Notes under the pieces: generated by a model
Told to the model about the DNA's origin: nothing
Database searches by the model: none
The model's input: only the letters and a program-made list of their open reading frames with translations
Shown: positions 2,315 through 50,133 of the stretch, piece by piece
How the letters are laid out: the number at the start of each line of letters is the position of its first letter
Numbering within the stretch: the stretch's first letter is position 1
Position numbers and translations under genes: made by a program
Source: Candidatus Omnitrophota bacterium
Lineage (GTDB): Bacteria; Omnitrophota; Gorgyraeia; 2-01-FULL-45-10
Reading direction: 5' to 3'
NCBI GenBank assembly: GCA_023818895.1
Contig: JAMWCX010000003.1
Coordinates: 219,823-283,822 of the forward strand
DNA: 64,000 bases

Positions 2315-3625
2315 CTATGATGTTTGCGTCGTCTTCTTGGGCCAGTACTTCTCTATGAGGGATTTTTTTATGCCGGTCTCTTCCGGAAGGAAGCATTCGG
2401 CCAAGATATCCCATCCGAGATCAAGAGCCTTCTCAAGAGGAATGTTTACTTCGAGCGACATCATATGCTTTTCGAAAAGTCGACCGTACTTCAGGAGTTT
2501 TTTATCCCATGAGCTCATCTGGAAACCCATGGCCCTCTTTTCAAGTGTCTCGCGGTAATTGGCAAATAGCTGAATCATGGTGTCCATTATCGTCCTATGG
2601 TCATCCCGCGTTTTGCCGTTCACCTGCTGCTTTAGGCGGCTTAAAGAACCGAATGGCTCTATGACATGATTTTTTAGATAGAATTGACCCTCGGTGATGT
2701 AGCCGGTGTTATCCGGCACCGGATGGGTGACATCATCGCCGGGCATTGTAGTGGCCGCAAGTATCGTTATTGATCCTGCTGTGTCAAAATCGACCGCTTT
2801 TTCATATCTGGCCGCAAGCTGGCTGTAGAGGTCACCTGGATATCCCCTGTTCGAAGGTATTTGTTCCATGGTAATGGCTATCTCCTTAAGGGCATCGCAG
2901 AAGTTTGTCATATCTGTAAGTAGCACAAGGACCCGCTTCCCTTCGAGAGCGAAGGCCTCCGCAACCGCAAGGCTTATATCGGGAACCAACAGACATTCGA
3001 CTGTTGGGTCGGCCGCTGTATGCATGAAAAATATCGACCTTGGCAACGCGCCGTGTTCCTCAAGAATGTCCCTGAAAAAAAGATAGTCGTCGTGTTTGAG
3101 CCCCATGCCACCCAGGATTATGATATCCACCTCAGCCTGTATCGCTATCCTGGCAAGCAGGTTATTGTAGGGCTCGCCCGCGACGGAAAATATCGGCAAC
3201 TTTTGGGATTCCACCAGAGAATTGAACAGGTCTATCATCGGTATGCCGGTACGTATCATCTTATTGGGTATGACGCGCTTGACGGGGTTAACCGGCGGAC
3301 CTCCTATGTCGATCATGTTTTCGGATAATGCCGGCCCGTTGTCGAGAGGGGATCCGCTCCCGTTGAAGATACGTCCTAAAAGATTGGGTCCGCTTGCCAC
3401 ACGCATTGGGTGGCCCAAGAATCTCACCCTGTCGCCCGTAGAGACGCCGCGGCTTCCGGCAAATACTTGTAAAGATACGTTCTTCCCGTCAATCCTTATT
3501 ACCTGGGCAAGAGAACTGCCGCGTTGGGTCTGGATATGCGCTATCTCATTATAGCCTATGTCTTCGGCCTCGACCATGATAACGTCACCGGCTATCTGAA
3601 GGATATTTGTGTATATTTTATGCAT
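2315..3625 (-). CDS. atpB: V-type ATP synthase subunit B (regulatory)
   Basis: 436 aa, strong similarity pattern to V/A-ATPase B subunits (…[16 protein letters not shown]…, lacks a canonical P-loop), 8-nt overlap with subunit A. Confidence 0.9.
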
Positions 3626-19236: not shown

Positions 19237-19314
19237 TGGCGTCCCCAACCGGATTTGAACCGGTGTTCTCAGAATGAAAATCTGATGTCCTGGACCGGAC
19301 TAGACGATGGGGAC
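19237..19314 (-). tRNA. tRNA-Glu (anticodon UUC)
   Basis: Reverse complement GTCCCCATCGTCTAGTCCGGTCCAGGACATCAGATTTTCATTCTGAGAACACCGGTTCAAATCCGGTTGGGGACGCCA folds as a cloverleaf with anticodon loop UUUUCAU, T-loop TTCAAAT and an encoded CCA. Confidence 0.8.
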
Positions 19315-36044: not shown

Positions 36045-36119
36045 GGCGCGGTAGCCAAGCGGTAAGGCAGGAGTCTGCAAAACTCTTATACAGCGGTTCG
36101 ATTCCGCTCCGCGCCTCCA
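36045..36119 (+). tRNA. tRNA-Cys (anticodon GCA)
   Basis: GGCGCGGTAGCCAAGCGGTAAGGCAGGAGTCTGCAAAACTCTTATACAGCGGTTCGATTCCGCTCCGCGCCTCCA; anticodon loop CUGCAAA, discriminator U, encoded CCA. Confidence 0.85.
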
Positions 36120-36261
36120 TCTTACTTCGCCCCTAGAAGATGTTCAGGGCTAAATACAATAGGTCTTGCTGGGCAGATCCGATTTGGGAAGGTAGAAATA
36201 TAGACTTTGGAAGGATTTTCCCTACGAAGTAACGCGTTGTTTGATAATGGAATGCGTAGCG

Positions 36262-36338
36262 GGGCAGTTAGCGCAGTTGGTTAGCGCACCACGTTGACAT
36301 CGTGGGGGTCAGAGGTTCGAGTCCTCTACTGCCCACCA
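36262..36338 (+). tRNA. tRNA-Val (anticodon GAC)
   Basis: GGGCAGTTAGCGCAGTTGGTTAGCGCACCACGTTGACATCGTGGGGGTCAGAGGTTCGAGTCCTCTACTGCCCACCA; anticodon loop UUGACAU. Confidence 0.85.
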
Positions 36339-36477
36339 TATTGCTCATTGTCTGACTGAAATTTATAAGGTTGGTTGAGTGGGACTCGAAGCCAATTTAC
36401 GCTGACGAACAGGAAGAAAAGTTCTCTGGACGTAAGCAAATAGGCCGGTCTGAAGCGAGCTATGCGAGCGAAAGACA

Positions 36478-36497
36478 GAGTCCTATACTGCCCATCA
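36478..36497 (+). repeat. 18/20-nt direct repeat of the tRNA-Val 3' end (GAGTCCTaTACTGCCCAtCA vs 36319-36338)
   Basis: Direct sequence comparison; the copy lacks the T-arm and 5' half, so it is a 3'-terminal fragment, not a tRNA. Confidence 0.5.
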
Positions 36498-36623
36498 TCC
36501 TTCGCCTCGATCGGTTGGGTTATTTAATGAATGCGGGTTTTGGATGGCAGGCCGGTTTGAATACGCTCCTGAGGGTTGAATGACCGAGCCCTCTATTGTC
36601 TTGAGAAAAGTATTAGTGCGGGT

Positions 36624-36711
36624 GCCGGGATGGCGGAACTGGCAGACGCAAGGGACTTAAAATCCCTCGGCCCCAAAGGCCATGTGGGTTCGACCCCCGC
36701 TCCCGGCACCA
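36624..36711 (+). tRNA. tRNA-Leu (anticodon UAA)
   Basis: GCCGGGATGGCGGAACTGGCAGACGCAAGGGACTTAAAATCCCTCGGCCCCAAAGGCCATGTGGGTTCGACCCCCGCTCCCGGCACCA; long variable arm, anticodon loop CUUAAAA. Confidence 0.85.
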
Positions 36712-43086: not shown

Positions 43087-43252
43087 AAAATCCCTGCGGT
43101 GCGCGTGATCGGAATGAAGAATCTTGAGCCATTAGCACTAAACTAGGGAGCCTAACTGAGCATACGCCTTGGCGTATGACCGAGGGCACCCACCTGTTCA
43201 TAACAGGGTCAAGATAATTCATATCACAACGGCATTGCGGGGATTTTTTATG
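43087..43252 (+). ncRNA. candidate structured RNA of unknown class (strand uncertain), closed by a 12-bp long-range helix AAAAAUCCCUGC/GCGGGGAUUUUU and followed by a U-tract
   Basis: Seen in sequence: 43087-43098 pairs with 43238-43249. Inside are the hairpins CATACGCC-UUGG-GGCGUAUG (43161-43178) and CCUGUU-CAU-AACAGG. The whole lies in a 457-nt gap with no ORF other than a spurious 79-aa reverse ORF. Confidence 0.25.
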
Positions 43253-44748: not shown

Positions 44749-45741
44749 ATGACCAAAAAAGCGGTCGTTCTATTCTCTGGAGGACTAGACTCGATACTGG
44801 CAACACGGCTTATGATGGAGCTGGGCATAGAGGTTGCGTGCGTTCACTACTATATCGAGTTTGCTGCCTGCGGAGGAGGGGAAACATCGGCTGTTAATGC
44901 CGCTAAAATGCTCGGCGTTCCGATCAAGATATTCGATATCACTGCAGAATATCTTGAAATGTTCAGAAATCCAAAACATGGTTATGGCGCGAATATAAAT
45001 CCCTGCATCGACTGCAAGATACTTATGCTTAAGAAGGCAAAGGAATATATGGCCGAAATTGGCGCTTCGTTTCTTGTGACCGGCGAGGTCCTCGGCGAAA
45101 GGCCGATGTCGCAGCGCAGAGATGCTCTAAACATTATAGAAAAAAACAGCGGCGTGCGCGGCATTCTCCTTAGGCCGCTTTCAGCAAAGTTGCTGGTGCC
45201 GACTATTCCGGAAGCAAAAGGCGTCGTTGACCGCGAAAAGCTTCTCGATATACAGGGCCGTAGCCGCAAGATACAGATGGAGCTTGCCGCGCGTTTCGGC
45301 ATAAAGGAATATCCAAATCCATCAGGAGGATGTCTTCTCACCGACCCAGGTTTTACAAAAAGAGTCAAAGACCTCATAGCGCACAACGACCTGAGCCTTG
45401 AAAGCCTGCGGCTTTTGAAGGTTGGCCGCCACTTCAGGCTGTCAGACAAGTCGAAACTTATCATAGGACGAGACAAAAATGAGAACAAATATATGCAGAG
45501 CCTCGCCAAAGACGGCGATGTCTGCATAAGGCTTAAAGACAGGCAGGGCCCATTTTCGATAATTCGCGGCTTTGCCGACGAGCCTCTTATAAAACGGGCA
45601 TGTGAAATAGTGGCGCAGCATACTAAATTCCGAAGCGAAGAATTTCTCAATATCCTTTGGTGGCGAAAAGGGGGTGATGAAAGGCAGATAGTTAAGGCCA
45701 GGGCGGCGTCCGCCGAAGAAATCAGCAAAAGCAGGATTTGA
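44749..45741 (+). CDS. ThiI-like PP-loop ATP pyrophosphatase (no THUMP/rhodanese domains) with uncharacterised C-terminal domain; putative sulfurtransferase
   Basis: 330 aa; PP-loop LFSGGLDS at residues 8-15; LVTGEVLGERPMSQRRDALNII…ILLRPL aligns with the ThiI catalytic region (VVTGEALGQVSSQTL…ILRPL); CIDCK motif. Confidence 0.5.
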   Translation: MTKKAVVLFSGGLDSILATRLMMELGIEVACVHYYIEFAACGGGETSAVNAAKMLGVPIKIFDITAEYLEMFRNPKHGYGANINPCIDCKILMLKKAKEYMAEIGASFLVTGEVLGERPMSQRRDALNIIEKNSGVRGILLRPLSAKLLVPTIPEAKGVVDREKLLDIQGRSRKIQMELAARFGIKEYPNPSGGCLLTDPGFTKRVKDLIAHNDLSLESLRLLKVGRHFRLSDKSKLIIGRDKNENKYMQSLAKDGDVCIRLKDRQGPFSIIRGFADEPLIKRACEIVAQHTKFRSEEFLNILWWRKGGDERQIVKARAASAEEISKSRI

Positions 45742-45766
45742 CATATCGATTGACATATGTTCTAAT
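45738..45766 (+). promoter_or_regulatory. putative sigma70-type promoter for the riboswitch-thiE-thi4 transcript (-35 TTGACA 45738-43, 17-nt spacer, -10 TCTAAT 45761-66)
   Basis: Hexamers and spacing seen in sequence; the -35 is part of a direct repeat TTGACATAT-CGA-TTGACATAT. Confidence 0.4.
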
Positions 45767-45778
45767 ATACACGCAAGT

Positions 45779-45867
45779 TCAGGGGAGGTTGTAAGGCAGC
45801 CTGAGAGTTCCGCGCAATAAGCGGATTACCCGAAGGACCTGATCCGGATAATGCCGGCGTAGGGAAG
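45779..45867 (+). promoter_or_regulatory. TPP (THI-box) riboswitch aptamer
   Basis: …AGGGGAGG…CAGCCUGAGAG…AUUACCCGAAGGACCUGAUCCGGAUAAUGCCGGCGUAGGGAAG… matches the conserved CUGAGA and ACCUGAUC.GGAUAAUGCC.GCGUAGGGAA cores of RF00059; upstream of thiE. Confidence 0.85.
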
Positions 45868-45880
45868 AAACATCAAGGCT

Positions 45881-45906
45881 CTTATGCATCGGCATAAGGG
45901 TTTTTT
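45881..45906 (+). terminator. riboswitch expression-platform intrinsic terminator (CUUAUGC-AUCG-GCAUAAG + GGGUUUUUUAUUU)
   Basis: 7-bp perfect hairpin followed by U6 immediately after the aptamer; the ORF-track ATG at 45884 lies inside this hairpin. Confidence 0.6.
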
Positions 45907-45931
45907 ATTTACAGGCGAGGTGAGCGCTATA

Positions 45932-46576
45932 ATGAGAAAAATAAAAGACCGTAGCCTATACCTTGTGATAAGCGAGGAATATTCGGATGGCAGGCCGGCA
46001 ATTTGGATCGCCGAAAGAGCGGTTGCCGGCGGTGTCGATATAATCCAGATGCGGGAAAAGAATAAATCGATGCAGGAGCTTGTTGAAATCGGCAGCAAGA
46101 TGCGTGATATCTGCCAGAAATCAAGCGCCCTCTTCATCGTAAACGACGATCCGACGCTCGCTCTACAACTGCGCGCAGATGGGGTTCATCTTGGCCAAGA
46201 AGATATAGCCCGTTTTCCGATAAAAAAAGCGAGAGATATTCTCGGCCCCGAAAGGATAATAGGCGTTTCCACGCACTCAATTGAGGAGGCGAAAGAAGCC
46301 TGCGCAAAAGAAGTGGATTATATAGCTTTTGGGCCTATATTTCCAACCGAGGCCAAGGGCTATCATATAGGCAAAGAAGGCATAAAAGAGGTCTTGGCGC
46401 TGGTAAAAAAACCCGTATTTTTCATAGGGGGCATAAATCTGTCAAATATAGCAGAAGTCCTGGCTGAGGGAGGTCGTAATATCGCTCTCATAAGACCGAT
46501 AACTCAGGCGGTGGATGTTGAGTCTGCGGTAAAAAAGTTTAAGAAGGCTCTTATACGGCCGGAAGGAGCAAGATGA
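45932..46576 (+). CDS. thiE: thiamine-phosphate synthase (start re-called to ATG 45932, downstream of the riboswitch terminator)
   Basis: 215 aa from [16 protein letters not shown]…; GAGGT RBS 8 nt upstream; ThiE motifs (…VQLREK-like IQMREK, …GVHLGQED…, …VSTH…). Confidence 0.8.
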
Positions 46577-47346
46577 AACTGGATGAGATAAAGATATCTA
46601 AAGCGATAATAGAAACCTATAAGGACAAGCTTGTGTCCGCCCTGGACATAGATGTAGCTATAGTTGGGGCCGGCCCCGCCGGCATGGTTTGTGGTTATTA
46701 TCTCGCCAGGAATGACAGGAGGGTTGCGATATTCGAGCGGAAGCTTTCCGTCGGAGGCGGGATGTGGGGCGGCGGCATCATGTTCAATGAGATAGTGGTG
46801 CAGGAAGCGGCGAAGAGGATACTGGACGAATTCGGCGTCAGGACGAAAAGCTACGAGAAAGGCTATTATACCGCCGATTCAATCGAAGCCGTCTCTACCA
46901 TATGCTCAAGGACCGTCAAGGCAGGGGTCAGAATATTTAATCTCATGAGCGTCGAGGATGTGATGGTAAGGAAGAACAGAATCTGCGGGCTTGTTCTGAA
47001 CTGGACAGCCGTTGAAATAGCGGCCTTGCATGTTGACCCCATCTCAATGGCGGCGCGCTTTGTAGTAGATGCGACAGGACACGCCGCGGAGGTTGCCCGC
47101 ATAGCAGAAAAAAAGTCCGGACTGAAATTAAAGACAAAAACAGGCAGGACAATAGGCGAAGGCTCCATGTGGGCGGATGTCGGCGAGGATACGATCGTGA
47201 AAAACTCTAAAGAGGTTGCCCCAGGCCTTTATACCTGCGGCATGTGCGCCAACGCTGTTCTCGGCGGTCCGCGCATGGGACCAATATTTGGCGGGATGCT
47301 TCTTTCAGGCGAGAAAGTGGCAAAGGATATCCTGCAGCGTTTATAA
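46573..47346 (+). CDS. thi4: thiazole synthase Thi4 (archaeal-type, His in place of the yeast suicide Cys: [11 protein letters not shown])
   Basis: 257 aa; FAD dinucleotide fold [10 protein letters not shown], Thi4 family pattern; 4-nt overlap with thiE. Confidence 0.85.
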
Positions 47347-47370: not shown

Positions 47371-47398
47371 TTGACAAAAATGAATATTGGTGTATAAT
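47371..47398 (+). promoter_or_regulatory. near-consensus sigma70 promoter (-35 TTGACA 47371-76, 16-nt spacer, -10 TATAAT 47393-98) for the Rrf2-cysK operon
   Basis: Perfect hexamers seen in sequence, 88 nt upstream of the Rrf2 GTG start. Confidence 0.65.
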
Positions 47399-47486
47399 CA
47401 CTACTAAAATAATCATATTTATCGGAATTTATATGGTAAACCAAGTTGCCAGTTTGAAAGAGCAAAAAGCTGTGAGGTGACAGCGG

Positions 47487-47951
47487 GTGAAGATAACATA
47501 TAAAGGCGATTACGCTCTCAAGGCTATATTCCAACTCGCCCTGCACTATGGTAAGTCGGATGAGTGTGTGATGTCCATTTCCGAAATAGCCAAACTTGGT
47601 GATATGCCTGTTAAATTTCTTGAGCAGATACTCCTTGCGCTTAGAAGGGGCGGTTTCGTGAAATCAAGACGCGGAGTGAAAGGCGGTTTTCTTTTGGCCA
47701 GGCACCCGAAAGAGATAAAGGTGGGTGAAGTGATAAGGTTTATGGAGGGGCCCATAGAGCCCATAGCCTGCGTTGAAAAGGAATCATACAAAGGATGTAA
47801 GGATGTTGCGGGATGCATATTTCGCGATATTTGGAAAGAGGTTAAAAATTCTGTATGCGCCATAGTTGATGCGCTGACCTTCGAAGACCTGATAATTCGT
47901 TATAAGGAAAAGAGCTTAAAAAAATCATCCATGCTTGAATACAATATATAG
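47487..47951 (+). CDS. Rrf2-family transcriptional regulator (CymR/IscR-like, Cys-x8-Cys-x5-Cys; GTG start)
   Basis: 154 aa; N-terminal w[21 protein letters not shown]…, putative Fe-S ligands in [18 protein letters not shown]. Confidence 0.8.
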
Positions 47952-47959
47952 AGGAAAGT

Positions 47960-48889
47960 ATGAGTATGAATATAGCCAACAATGTAATAGAACTTATAGG
48001 GAAAACGCCCATGGTGCGTTTAAGGCGCCTTATTACCTCCGGTATGGCCGAGGTTGTTGCTAAGCTTGAGTATTTCAACCCAGGCGGAAGCGTAAAAGAT
48101 AGGATATGCCTCGCCATGATAGAGGACGCAGAGAAAAAGGGGCTTCTCAAAAAGGGCGCGACCATAATAGAGCCAACGAGCGGTAATACGGGCATAGGCC
48201 TTGCCATGATAGCCGCCGCAAAAGGATATAAGTGCCTTCTTACCATGCCAGACACCATGTCAGTGGAGCGCCGCCAGATTCTCAGATCATACGGCGCTGA
48301 GATAGTGTTAACACCGGGCACTGAAGGAATGAAGGGCGCTGTGAAGAAGGCGGAAGAATTATGCAAAAAAACAGCCGACAGCTTCATGCCTCAGCAGTTC
48401 GAAAATCCGTCGAACCCGGCCGCCCACCGGCGTACCACCGCCGTAGAGATACTTGAGCAGACAAAGGGAATGCTCGATGCTTTTGTGGCAGGAGTTGGGA
48501 CAGGGGGAACCATTACCGGTGTCGGTGAAGTCTTGAAAAAGCACAATGCCGGCATAAAAATAGTCGCTGTTGAACCGAAAAAAAGCCCGGTACTATCAGG
48601 CGGACCGGCCGGACCTCACCGTATACAGGGTATAGGCGCAGGTTTTATTCCGCGCGTCCTTAACCGTAGCGTTATTGACAGAATAATCCAGGTGGAAGAT
48701 AATGATGCGTTTCTTGTCGCAAAGGCCTTGGCCAAAGACGAAGGCCTTTTTGTGGGGATATCGAGCGGCGCCGCCGTTTACGCAGCTCTTAAGATAGCAA
48801 AGGAGATGGGTGAAGGTAAGAGGGTGGTCGCTATTCTACCGGATACAGGCGAACGTTATCTATCAATGGAAGAGCATATTAAGGCATAG
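47960..48889 (+). CDS. cysK: cysteine synthase A (O-acetylserine sulfhydrylase)
   Basis: 309 aa; PLP-lysine motif [27 protein letters not shown]. Confidence 0.9.
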
Positions 48890-48915
48890 GTTCGGGATAT
48901 GGAGGGTAAGACAGC

Positions 48916-50133
48916 ATGGCAAAGACGATAAAAGAGATAAACGAAAAGATAAAACGCGGCGAGGCGGTAGTAGTGACAGCCGAAGAGGTCATCGACCTTG
49001 TCGAAAAGAAGGGCCTTAAAGAAACGGCAAGGCATGTCGATGTCGTTACAACAGGGACATTCGGGCCGATGTGCTCGTCCGGCGTTTACTTGAATGTGGG
49101 TCACGCCAAACCGAAGATAAAGTTAGGAGGAGGTCATGTGACTTTAAACGGCGTGCCGGCGTATACGGGCTTCGCCGCCGTGGATATTTACATAGGCGCA
49201 ACCGCTATGCCTGACGACGACCCGCGCAATAAGGTCTATCCAGGCGAGTTTAGATATGGAGGCGGTCATGTAATAGAAGAGCTTGTGTCAGGTAAGGATA
49301 TAGTGCTCGAAGGCGCCGCTTACGGCACAGACTGTTATCCGCGCAAGCATATAAAGACTTATATAAATATAAAGGACTTGAACGAGGCCGTGCTTTTGAA
49401 TCCGCGCAACTGCTACCAGAACTACAATGTGGCGGTGAATGCATCTGACTCAAAGACAATCTACACATACATGGGCGCGCTCAAACCGGGCTTCGGCAAC
49501 GCTAACTATTGTTCGGCAGGGCAGCTTTCGCCGCTTCTTAAAGATCCGCTATACAGGACCATCGGAGTGGGTACCAGGATATTTCTTGGCGGCGGCGTCG
49601 GCTATGTCTACTGGCATGGCACCCAGCATAATCCTTCGGTGAAGCGCAAGGATAACGGTGTTCCGCAGGTGCCCGCCGGCACAATCGCAGTCATGGGCGA
49701 TCTCAAGCAGATGAGCCCTTCCTGGCTTAGGGGAATATCGTTTCAGGGATACGGCGTTAGCCTTACCGTCGGTCTCGGAATTCCGATACCTATCCTAAAT
49801 GAGGATGTGCTCAAGGATGCGGCCATAAAGGATGAAGATATCTGGACCCAAATCGTCGACTATAGCGAAGACTATCCACAGGGAAAACCAAACTCGCTCG
49901 GCGAGGTGAACTATAAACAACTCAAGAGCGGCTCTATTAATATTAAAGGTAAAGAGGTCCCGACGTCTTCTCTTTCGAGCTATGTGAAAGCGCTCGAAAT
50001 CGCAGAGGAACTCAAAAAATGGATAAAGGATAGAAAGTTTTTTCTGACAGAATATGTTCAAAGGCTGCCTGGAGCCGAATCAGGGTATTCTTTTAAGCCG
50101 CTGAAAGAAAGACCAGTTAAAGAGGAGGAATAA
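48916..50133 (+). CDS. DUF39/COG1900-family protein (putative sulfide-incorporating homocysteine biosynthesis enzyme)
   Basis: 405 aa; family assignment by recalled similarity to the methanogen COG1900 protein pattern, lacking CBS domains; immediately downstream of cysK. Confidence 0.5.
   Translation: MAKTIKEINEKIKRGEAVVVTAEEVIDLVEKKGLKETARHVDVVTTGTFGPMCSSGVYLNVGHAKPKIKLGGGHVTLNGVPAYTGFAAVDIYIGATAMPDDDPRNKVYPGEFRYGGGHVIEELVSGKDIVLEGAAYGTDCYPRKHIKTYINIKDLNEAVLLNPRNCYQNYNVAVNASDSKTIYTYMGALKPGFGNANYCSAGQLSPLLKDPLYRTIGVGTRIFLGGGVGYVYWHGTQHNPSVKRKDNGVPQVPAGTIAVMGDLKQMSPSWLRGISFQGYGVSLTVGLGIPIPILNEDVLKDAAIKDEDIWTQIVDYSEDYPQGKPNSLGEVNYKQLKSGSINIKGKEVPTSSLSSYVKALEIAEELKKWIKDRKFFLTEYVQRLPGAESGYSFKPLKERPVKEEE

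Follow-up and report, generated by a model that had tools for sequence, protein, structure and literature searches.

Exchange between an antiterminator and a terminator is the established mechanism of riboswitches that respond to thiamine pyrophosphate (TPP) at the level of transcription (PMC2258182; PMC7237195). The TPP switch of Bacillus subtilis tenA is under kinetic control (PMC3280964). Outside the Firmicutes, the thiC leader of Neisseria meningitidis is an experimentally shown TPP OFF switch with a Rho-independent terminator, in which the antiterminator obstructs the terminator's 5' branch and has its strand at the leader's 5' end (mutation at nt 9-12) (PMC7237195). Here we examine the leader of the thiE-thi4 operon in a 64,000-nt stretch of DNA from an uncultured Omnitrophota bacterium; this whole stretch is referred to as the window, and all positions are window coordinates on the + strand unless stated otherwise. 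Our computational analysis indicates, with a probability of roughly 85%, that this leader is a TPP riboswitch which attenuates transcription and follows OFF logic. The layout is that of B. subtilis tenA and thiC, where an RF00059 aptamer is followed by an intrinsic terminator and then by thiamine biosynthesis genes, with OFF logic, and where a mutually exclusive antiterminator misfolds the aptamer; in the window the OFF logic and this last element are predictions. The window differs from these systems in its uncultured Omnitrophota host, in its cargo (thiE and a sulfide-type thi4) and in a P1 helix of only 3 bp.

The relatives used for comparison were 80 ThiE-encoding loci from a scan of one genome per species, mostly metagenome-assembled genomes (MAGs) of Omnitrophota, plus Syntrophales, Smithella and a few others. 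An aptamer that scores as TPP by Rfam lies upstream of thiE in 38 of these 80 loci. The window, 37 of the 38 (L006 could not be anchored) and locus L021 make up the 39 aptamer units that were analysed.

The window aptamer is a member of the RF00059 (TPP) family of Rfam. The match at 45771-45883 scored 61.9 bits, where the gathering score is 54.3, covered model positions 1-105 in full and had an E-value of 9.8e-10 in the 64-kb window (7.7e-12 in a local search); it was the sole TPP match within the window. Its structured core spans about 45778-45869. A sequence-only reading of this DNA had placed a TPP aptamer at 45779-45867, which is the core of the match and passed the covariance-model scan; the coordinates given in that reading proved to be correct or a little narrow. 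Both ligand-contact motifs are present, namely the CUGAGA junction of the pyrimidine sensor (45801-45806), which is invariant in the alignment A2 of relatives, and the P4/P5 consensus ACCUGAUC.GGAUAAUGCC.GCGUAGGGA of the pyrophosphate-sensor helix (45838-45863). According to the Rfam alignment, P4 pairs 45838-41 with 45860-63 and P5 pairs 45844-47 with 45854-57; the arm at 45837-65 reads ACCUGAUCCGGAUAAUGCCGGCGUAGGGA, its P5 showing a compensated change from U-A to C-G, and the P3 loop has an 8-nt insertion. Among 35 aligned related aptamers, double changes were found in 14 of the 22 consensus pairs of helices P2 to P5. On the alignment A3, which holds 22 Omnitrophota-type leaders, 98.3% of the cells of the P4/P5 arm are paired, and three of its pairs show double changes. 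The aptamer lies in the 5' leader of the thiamine synthesis genes thiE (TIGR00693) and thi4 (TIGR00292), and judging by its sequence the window RNA would be expected to bind TPP.

Downstream of the aptamer, and before the ribosome-binding site, an intrinsic terminator hairpin occupies 45875-45904. Its core of 9 bp starts from the pair C45879-G45900 and closes on the loop AUCG (45888-91); the innermost 7-bp stem reads CUUAUGC-AUCG-GCAUAAG from C45881 to G45898, while outer A-U and G.U pairs extend the helix to 13 bp and take up the first U residues of the U tract. From the sequence, the attenuated transcript is predicted to end in the U6 tract at 45901-45906. The earlier proposal of an intrinsic terminator downstream of the aptamer, a 7-bp hairpin with U6 at 45881-45906, is borne out in both respects: the hairpin is present, with a stem that extends to 9-13 bp, and it is conserved with compensatory changes in relatives. 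Its folding energy of -14.9 kcal/mol compares with -3.5 +/- 1.5 in dinucleotide shuffles (z -7.6), none of the 200 shuffles being as stable. Compensatory changes were seen in relatives at 11 of the 13 terminator pairs, and none of 500 shuffles matched the observed values. When the terminator and P4/P5 were taken together on A3, 90.7% of cells were paired and 14 pairs had changed on both sides, with none of 500 shuffles attaining any of the measures. The 5' arm and the loop are nearly fixed across loci (CCYUUAUGC..YGGCAU), and the 3' arm covaries with the 5' arm. The conserved position and these compensatory changes in relatives show that the terminator is a conserved structure under selection as such.

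A different account of the same features would be that thiE is controlled at translation initiation by sequestration of its Shine-Dalgarno sequence, and that the hairpin is incidental or serves only as the terminator of the gene upstream. Translation control is the commoner TPP mechanism outside the Firmicutes (PMC2258182), and the terminator scan found nothing from 45741 up to the riboswitch that could serve the upstream PP-loop gene as a terminator of its own. In Escherichia coli, thiM and thiC are repressed by the same aptamer and ligand through masking of the Shine-Dalgarno sequence and start codon. In the window, by contrast, the Shine-Dalgarno sequence GAGGUGA lies beyond the terminator, 11 nt past the U tract, and none of the predicted folds pairs it. 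Moreover, a hairpin and a U-run follow the aptamer in 36 of the 39 units whatever gene lies upstream, and the sequence of the terminator 5' arm is tied to the aptamer. Control at translation initiation is very unlikely on this evidence, and transcription attenuation remains the preferred reading.

The genes under this leader are thiE, encoding a thiamine-phosphate synthase of 214 aa (45932-46576; PF02581; TIGR00693 at 188.6 bits, with the cut-off at 145.1), and thi4, encoding a sulfide-dependent ADP-thiazole synthase of 257 aa (46573-47346; PF01946; TIGR00292 at 314.9 bits against 148.3), whose best solved relative is 7rk0. The cargo named in the sequence-only reading was thus the right one. 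The thiE stop and the thi4 start overlap by ATGA, which places the two genes in one operon.

The true start of thiE is the ATG at 45932, and the start of the longest open reading frame (45884-46576) is spurious. The latter ATG (45884-45886) lies within the 5' arm of the terminator, as had been noticed from the sequence, and the in-frame ATG 45932 is 16 codons downstream of it. The Shine-Dalgarno sequence GAGGUGA at 45917-23 stands 8 nt before ATG 45932, in agreement with the earlier placement of the start behind a GAGG, and is presumably complementary to the 3' end of the 16S rRNA. Among the best 120 ThiE homologues, 88 start exactly at the methionine of 45932 and 103 no more than two residues away, so that conservation of the 16 extra residues in orthologues, which would have spoken for the longer protein, was not found. 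An identical public NCBI protein, P0001, whose source MAG carries the label Candidatus Omnitrophica bacterium (GCA_023818765.1), also has 214 aa and the 45932 start. The expectation that automated annotation would place the start wrongly therefore fails for the locus itself, and it holds in relatives, where at least three JGI or Logan gene calls are affected.

It could be argued that ATG 45884 is the real start and that the 16 N-terminal residues are functional, since 5 of the 120 homologue gene calls extend with MHRHKGFLF-like N-termini. These extensions, however, are the conserved terminator RNA (GGCAUAAGGGUUUUU) translated in frame to RHKGF. Three of the five extended gene calls were inspected at the DNA level. 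In L082 (601-627) a TPP aptamer of 55.7 bits is immediately followed by the called ATG, which falls within the terminator 5' arm; in L083 (32-120) the called ATG lies in the P5 loop of the aptamer (UAAUGCC); and in L084 (143-203) a TTG located 5' of the terminator was called as the start. Since the starts so called fall within the terminator or the aptamer, or upstream of them, the RHKGF(L)F similarity in 5 of 120 homologues comes from the RNA and not from conservation of a peptide. In addition, ATG 45884 is buried in the hairpin and is preceded only by a weak AAGG (45875-78, in the same stem) instead of a full Shine-Dalgarno sequence. With 88 of 120 homologues beginning at the downstream methionine, a functional extension is hardly credible. 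A conserved terminator RNA that is read in frame can thus mimic a conserved protein N-terminus.

An OFF switch of this type calls for an alternative pairing, and a candidate was found in the window. The proposed antiterminator is a helix of 14 bp, in which the upstream strand AUGCCGGCGUAGGG (45851-45864), made up of the 3' strands of P5 and P4, pairs with 45880-87 and then, after a 2-nt bulge, with 45890-95. The downstream strand, UCUUAUGC-au-CGGCAU (45880-45895), takes in the 5' arm of the terminator together with two bases of its loop and the first four of its 3' arm. For the duplex, the predicted energy is -18.1 kcal/mol (z -3.6). The 8-bp pairing of GCGUAGGG with UCUUAUGC alone was weak (-8.1 kcal/mol, z -1.3) and was set aside in favour of the extended helix. 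In unconstrained folds of nascent transcripts, 18 of 37 loci, the window included, take the equivalent pairing.

The behaviour of the window transcript was followed in a scan over transcript lengths, with an energy model of which TPP binding is not a part. For transcripts ending at or before 45892, the minimum-energy fold contains the intact aptamer. In transcripts ending at 45894-45898, the fold of lowest energy is the antiterminator (-36.0 to -37.8, compared with -33.7 to -37.1 when P4/P5 is enforced), and from 45900 onwards the aptamer with the terminator is lowest (-45.2 against -40.2). This predicted succession of aptamer, antiterminator and terminator is like that of tenA (PMC3280964, PMC2258182).

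Two other assignments of the pairing were considered. In the first, the riboswitch and terminator would be the same and the logic would still be OFF, but the antiterminator would be formed by the CUGAGAG segment (AGCCUGAGAGU, 45798-45808) and the terminator 5' arm (GCUCUUAUGC, 45878-87). Of the short-range partners in the window, this duplex scores best (-9.3 kcal/mol; z -2.5 relative to shuffled arms); it is the second-best fold of the transcript ending at 45891 (-33.3 against -33.7) with a mean pair probability of 0.31, and loci L071 and L073 show comparable complementarity. Over 37 loci, however, its complementarity is not above chance (mean z -0.44), the helix of the P4/P5 strands is twice as stable, and that 14-bp helix becomes the minimum-energy fold once 45892-95 have been transcribed. 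We therefore consider the CUGAGAG assignment unlikely. In the second, the leader would be an ON switch, in which a TPP-stabilised P1, extended by the pairing of GCA 45773-75 with UGC 45885-87, would hold the terminator 5' arm and lead to read-through. This 3-bp pairing does occur in the minimum-energy fold of the transcript ending at 45891, with a pair probability of about 0.4. Three base pairs cannot, however, compete with the 13-bp hairpin of -14.9 kcal/mol, the pairing is not conserved in the class to which the window belongs (5'-strand z +0.4), and biosynthetic genes that are switched on when their product is abundant would make no physiological sense. An ON switch is accordingly highly improbable.

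The 14-bp antiterminator of the OFF switch finds further support in the relatives. In 22 of them the complementarity is kept, with 89.6% of cells pairing against 34-54% in slid registers. The pair 45856-45890, whose second base belongs to the terminator loop, is A-U in 13 cases, G-C in 3 and G-U in 1, by RNAduplex assignments that are biased towards pairs. A partner test against shuffled arms gave a mean z of -2.06 over 37 loci for the GCGUAGGG strand of the aptamer (z < -1.5 in 24 of 37) and of -2.17 for the 5' P1/P2 strand (z < -1.5 in 19 of 37), while the CUGAGA junction reached z < -1.5 in 8 of 37.

Several observations weigh against the OFF switch as proposed. P1 has only three standard pairs in the window (UUC 45778-80 with GAA 45867-69), and of the five pairs in the model two are non-canonical; P1 is also absent from the consensus fold of the 35 related aptamers. 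In place of the CCC of most relatives, the 5' arm of the window reads CUC, which introduces three G.U pairs into the antiterminator. Covariation of the antiterminator in the 22 relatives is not significant: neither strand varies much, and the observed values are matched by shuffles. Finally, in the full-length leader the terminator state is favoured over the antiterminator state by 5 kcal/mol, so read-through would need kinetic control. In view of these points, the exact antiterminator is probably the helix of 45851-64 with 45880-95, though this is unproven, and the model of OFF regulation by termination as such is well supported. OFF logic fits because the cargo is biosynthetic and an alternative pairing was found.

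The proposed course of events would be as follows. Transcription would start at about 45771-45774 from a promoter of the form TTGACA-17-TGnTCTAAT, and the aptamer (45778-45869) would fold first. With TPP bound, the P4/P5 arm would be held closed through the short stage at which the antiterminator is able to form; the hairpin 45875-45904 could then form, and RNA polymerase would release the transcript at 45901-45906, ahead of the Shine-Dalgarno sequence and the thiE start. In the absence of TPP, the emerging terminator segment (UCUUAUGC..CGGCAU) would be captured by the 3' strands of P5 and P4, and the 14-bp antiterminator would block the hairpin, so that thiE and thi4 would be transcribed. In its kinetic control, this scheme would resemble the tenA switch.

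The proposed antiterminator would invade the 3' strands of P4/P5; the tenA antiterminator centres on P1 instead. A second design appears among the relatives. In leaders labelled Syntrophales, Smithella or Dehalococcoidales, the 5' P1/P2 strand (e.g. GCAUAAGGGG) pairs perfectly with the terminator 5' arm, CCCCUUAUGC, at -15 to -22 kcal/mol, which makes a much stronger antiterminator; the loci with such a 5'-strand antiterminator are L018, L020, L024, L029, L033-L035, L037, L043, L045, L046, L053, L060, L062 and L064. The design of Neisseria thiC matches these Syntrophales and Smithella relatives and not the window, for which a 5' P1/P2-strand antiterminator was tried and rejected, there being no complementarity (z +0.4). 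At about even odds, in our judgement, the Omnitrophota-type thiE leaders switch by an antiterminator that unzips the P5 and P4 3' strands and recruits bases of the terminator loop, and not via P1, while the Syntrophales use the 5' P1/P2 strand. If so, unzipping of P4/P5 would explain the nearly fixed sequence of the 5' arm and loop of the terminator, and the arrangement would be a lineage-specific variant of the expression platform of a known riboswitch.

The predicted promoter immediately precedes the aptamer. Its -35 hexamer TTGACA (45738-45743) shares bases with TGA 45739-41, the stop codon of the PP-loop/NFACT-R_2 gene upstream, and an extended -10 element, TGtTCTAAT, lies at 45758-45766. 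In a custom scan, TTGACA-17-TCTAAT is an 11/12 match that ends 15 nt 5' of the aptamer GGGG; the standard promoter scan, whose rule accepts only A as the second base of the -10 hexamer, missed the site. Of 20 scanned relatives, 13 have TTGACA or TTGACT-16/17-T.TAAT, often preceded by TG, ending 8-20 nt before the aptamer GGGG, and TG-n-T.TAAT is also found in L010, L005, L031, L071, L022 and L011. A direct repeat, TTGACATAT(cga)TTGACATAT at 45738-45758, places a second TTGACA in the promoter spacer, which may be due to chance.

The riboswitch is more frequent at thiE relatives than Rfam-based counts suggest, since these miss aptamers with insertions. Upstream of thiE in L012, L013, L017, L019, L030, L039 and L040, aptamers with large P3 or P3a insertions fall below the gathering score and retain CUGAGA, GCGUAGGGA and the same type of terminator. 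In the syntenic MAG of L021, the PP-loop gene and thiE are directly adjacent without an intervening riboswitch, and a TPP riboswitch with a terminator lies 3' of thiE (3353-3462), where it presumably controls the next gene. The syntenic locus L002 (6S RNA, mgsA, PP-loop gene, thiE) lacks a riboswitch altogether and is therefore unusable as an orthologous comparison.

The window element is an ordinary member of RF00059 with a standard terminator-type platform, and both the family and the mechanism were already known: transcription attenuation by TPP with antiterminator exchange is textbook knowledge (PMC2258182), and any pipeline based on Rfam would detect the element. Only three aspects appear mildly new, namely the proposed Omnitrophota antiterminator built from P4/P5 3' strands and loop bases, the 5'-strand design in Syntrophales, and the spurious N-termini. 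Beyond annotation, where the thiE start is now fixed at 45932, the importance is small; this Omnitrophota genome probably regulates its thiamine synthesis by the most widespread riboswitch class. The two antiterminator designs among thiE leaders could help the modelling of TPP expression platforms, as variations on an established mechanism.

The product of the gene upstream of the leader (44749-45741) is a fusion of a ThiI/MnmA-like PP-loop ATPase with an NFACT-R_2 RNA-binding domain at its C-terminus. The same type of gene is next upstream of thiE in several Omnitrophota MAGs (loci L002, L007, L008, L016, L019, L021, L026 and L061), often in the order mgsA, PP-loop gene, thiE. A TPP riboswitch lies between the PP-loop gene and thiE in the window, L017 and L019, and the two genes abut without one in L002, L007, L008, L026 and L061. 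This conserved neighbourhood hints at a link of the PP-loop protein to thiamine or to sulfur transfer. Further upstream, a 6S RNA (RF00013, 72.4 bits) at 43088-43247 precedes mgsA, with the same synteny in L002 (411-572, 61.9 bits), from a related Omnitrophica MAG.

On the other side of the operon, a perfect consensus promoter, TTGACA-16-TATAAT (47371-98), directly follows thi4 and is followed in turn by genes for an Rrf2 regulator, CysK and a homocysteine-biosynthesis protein (HcyBio, PF01837), the region extending over 47371-50133; no terminator was detected between thi4 and this Rrf2-CysK-HcyBio cluster. The trio is also found near thiE in L072 (4774-6615), and the sulfide-using enzymes Thi4, CysK and HcyBio are thus clustered in the window. 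Elsewhere in the window, Rfam models mark four tRNA genes, three of them clustered at 36045-36708 (+) and one at 19240-19314 (-).

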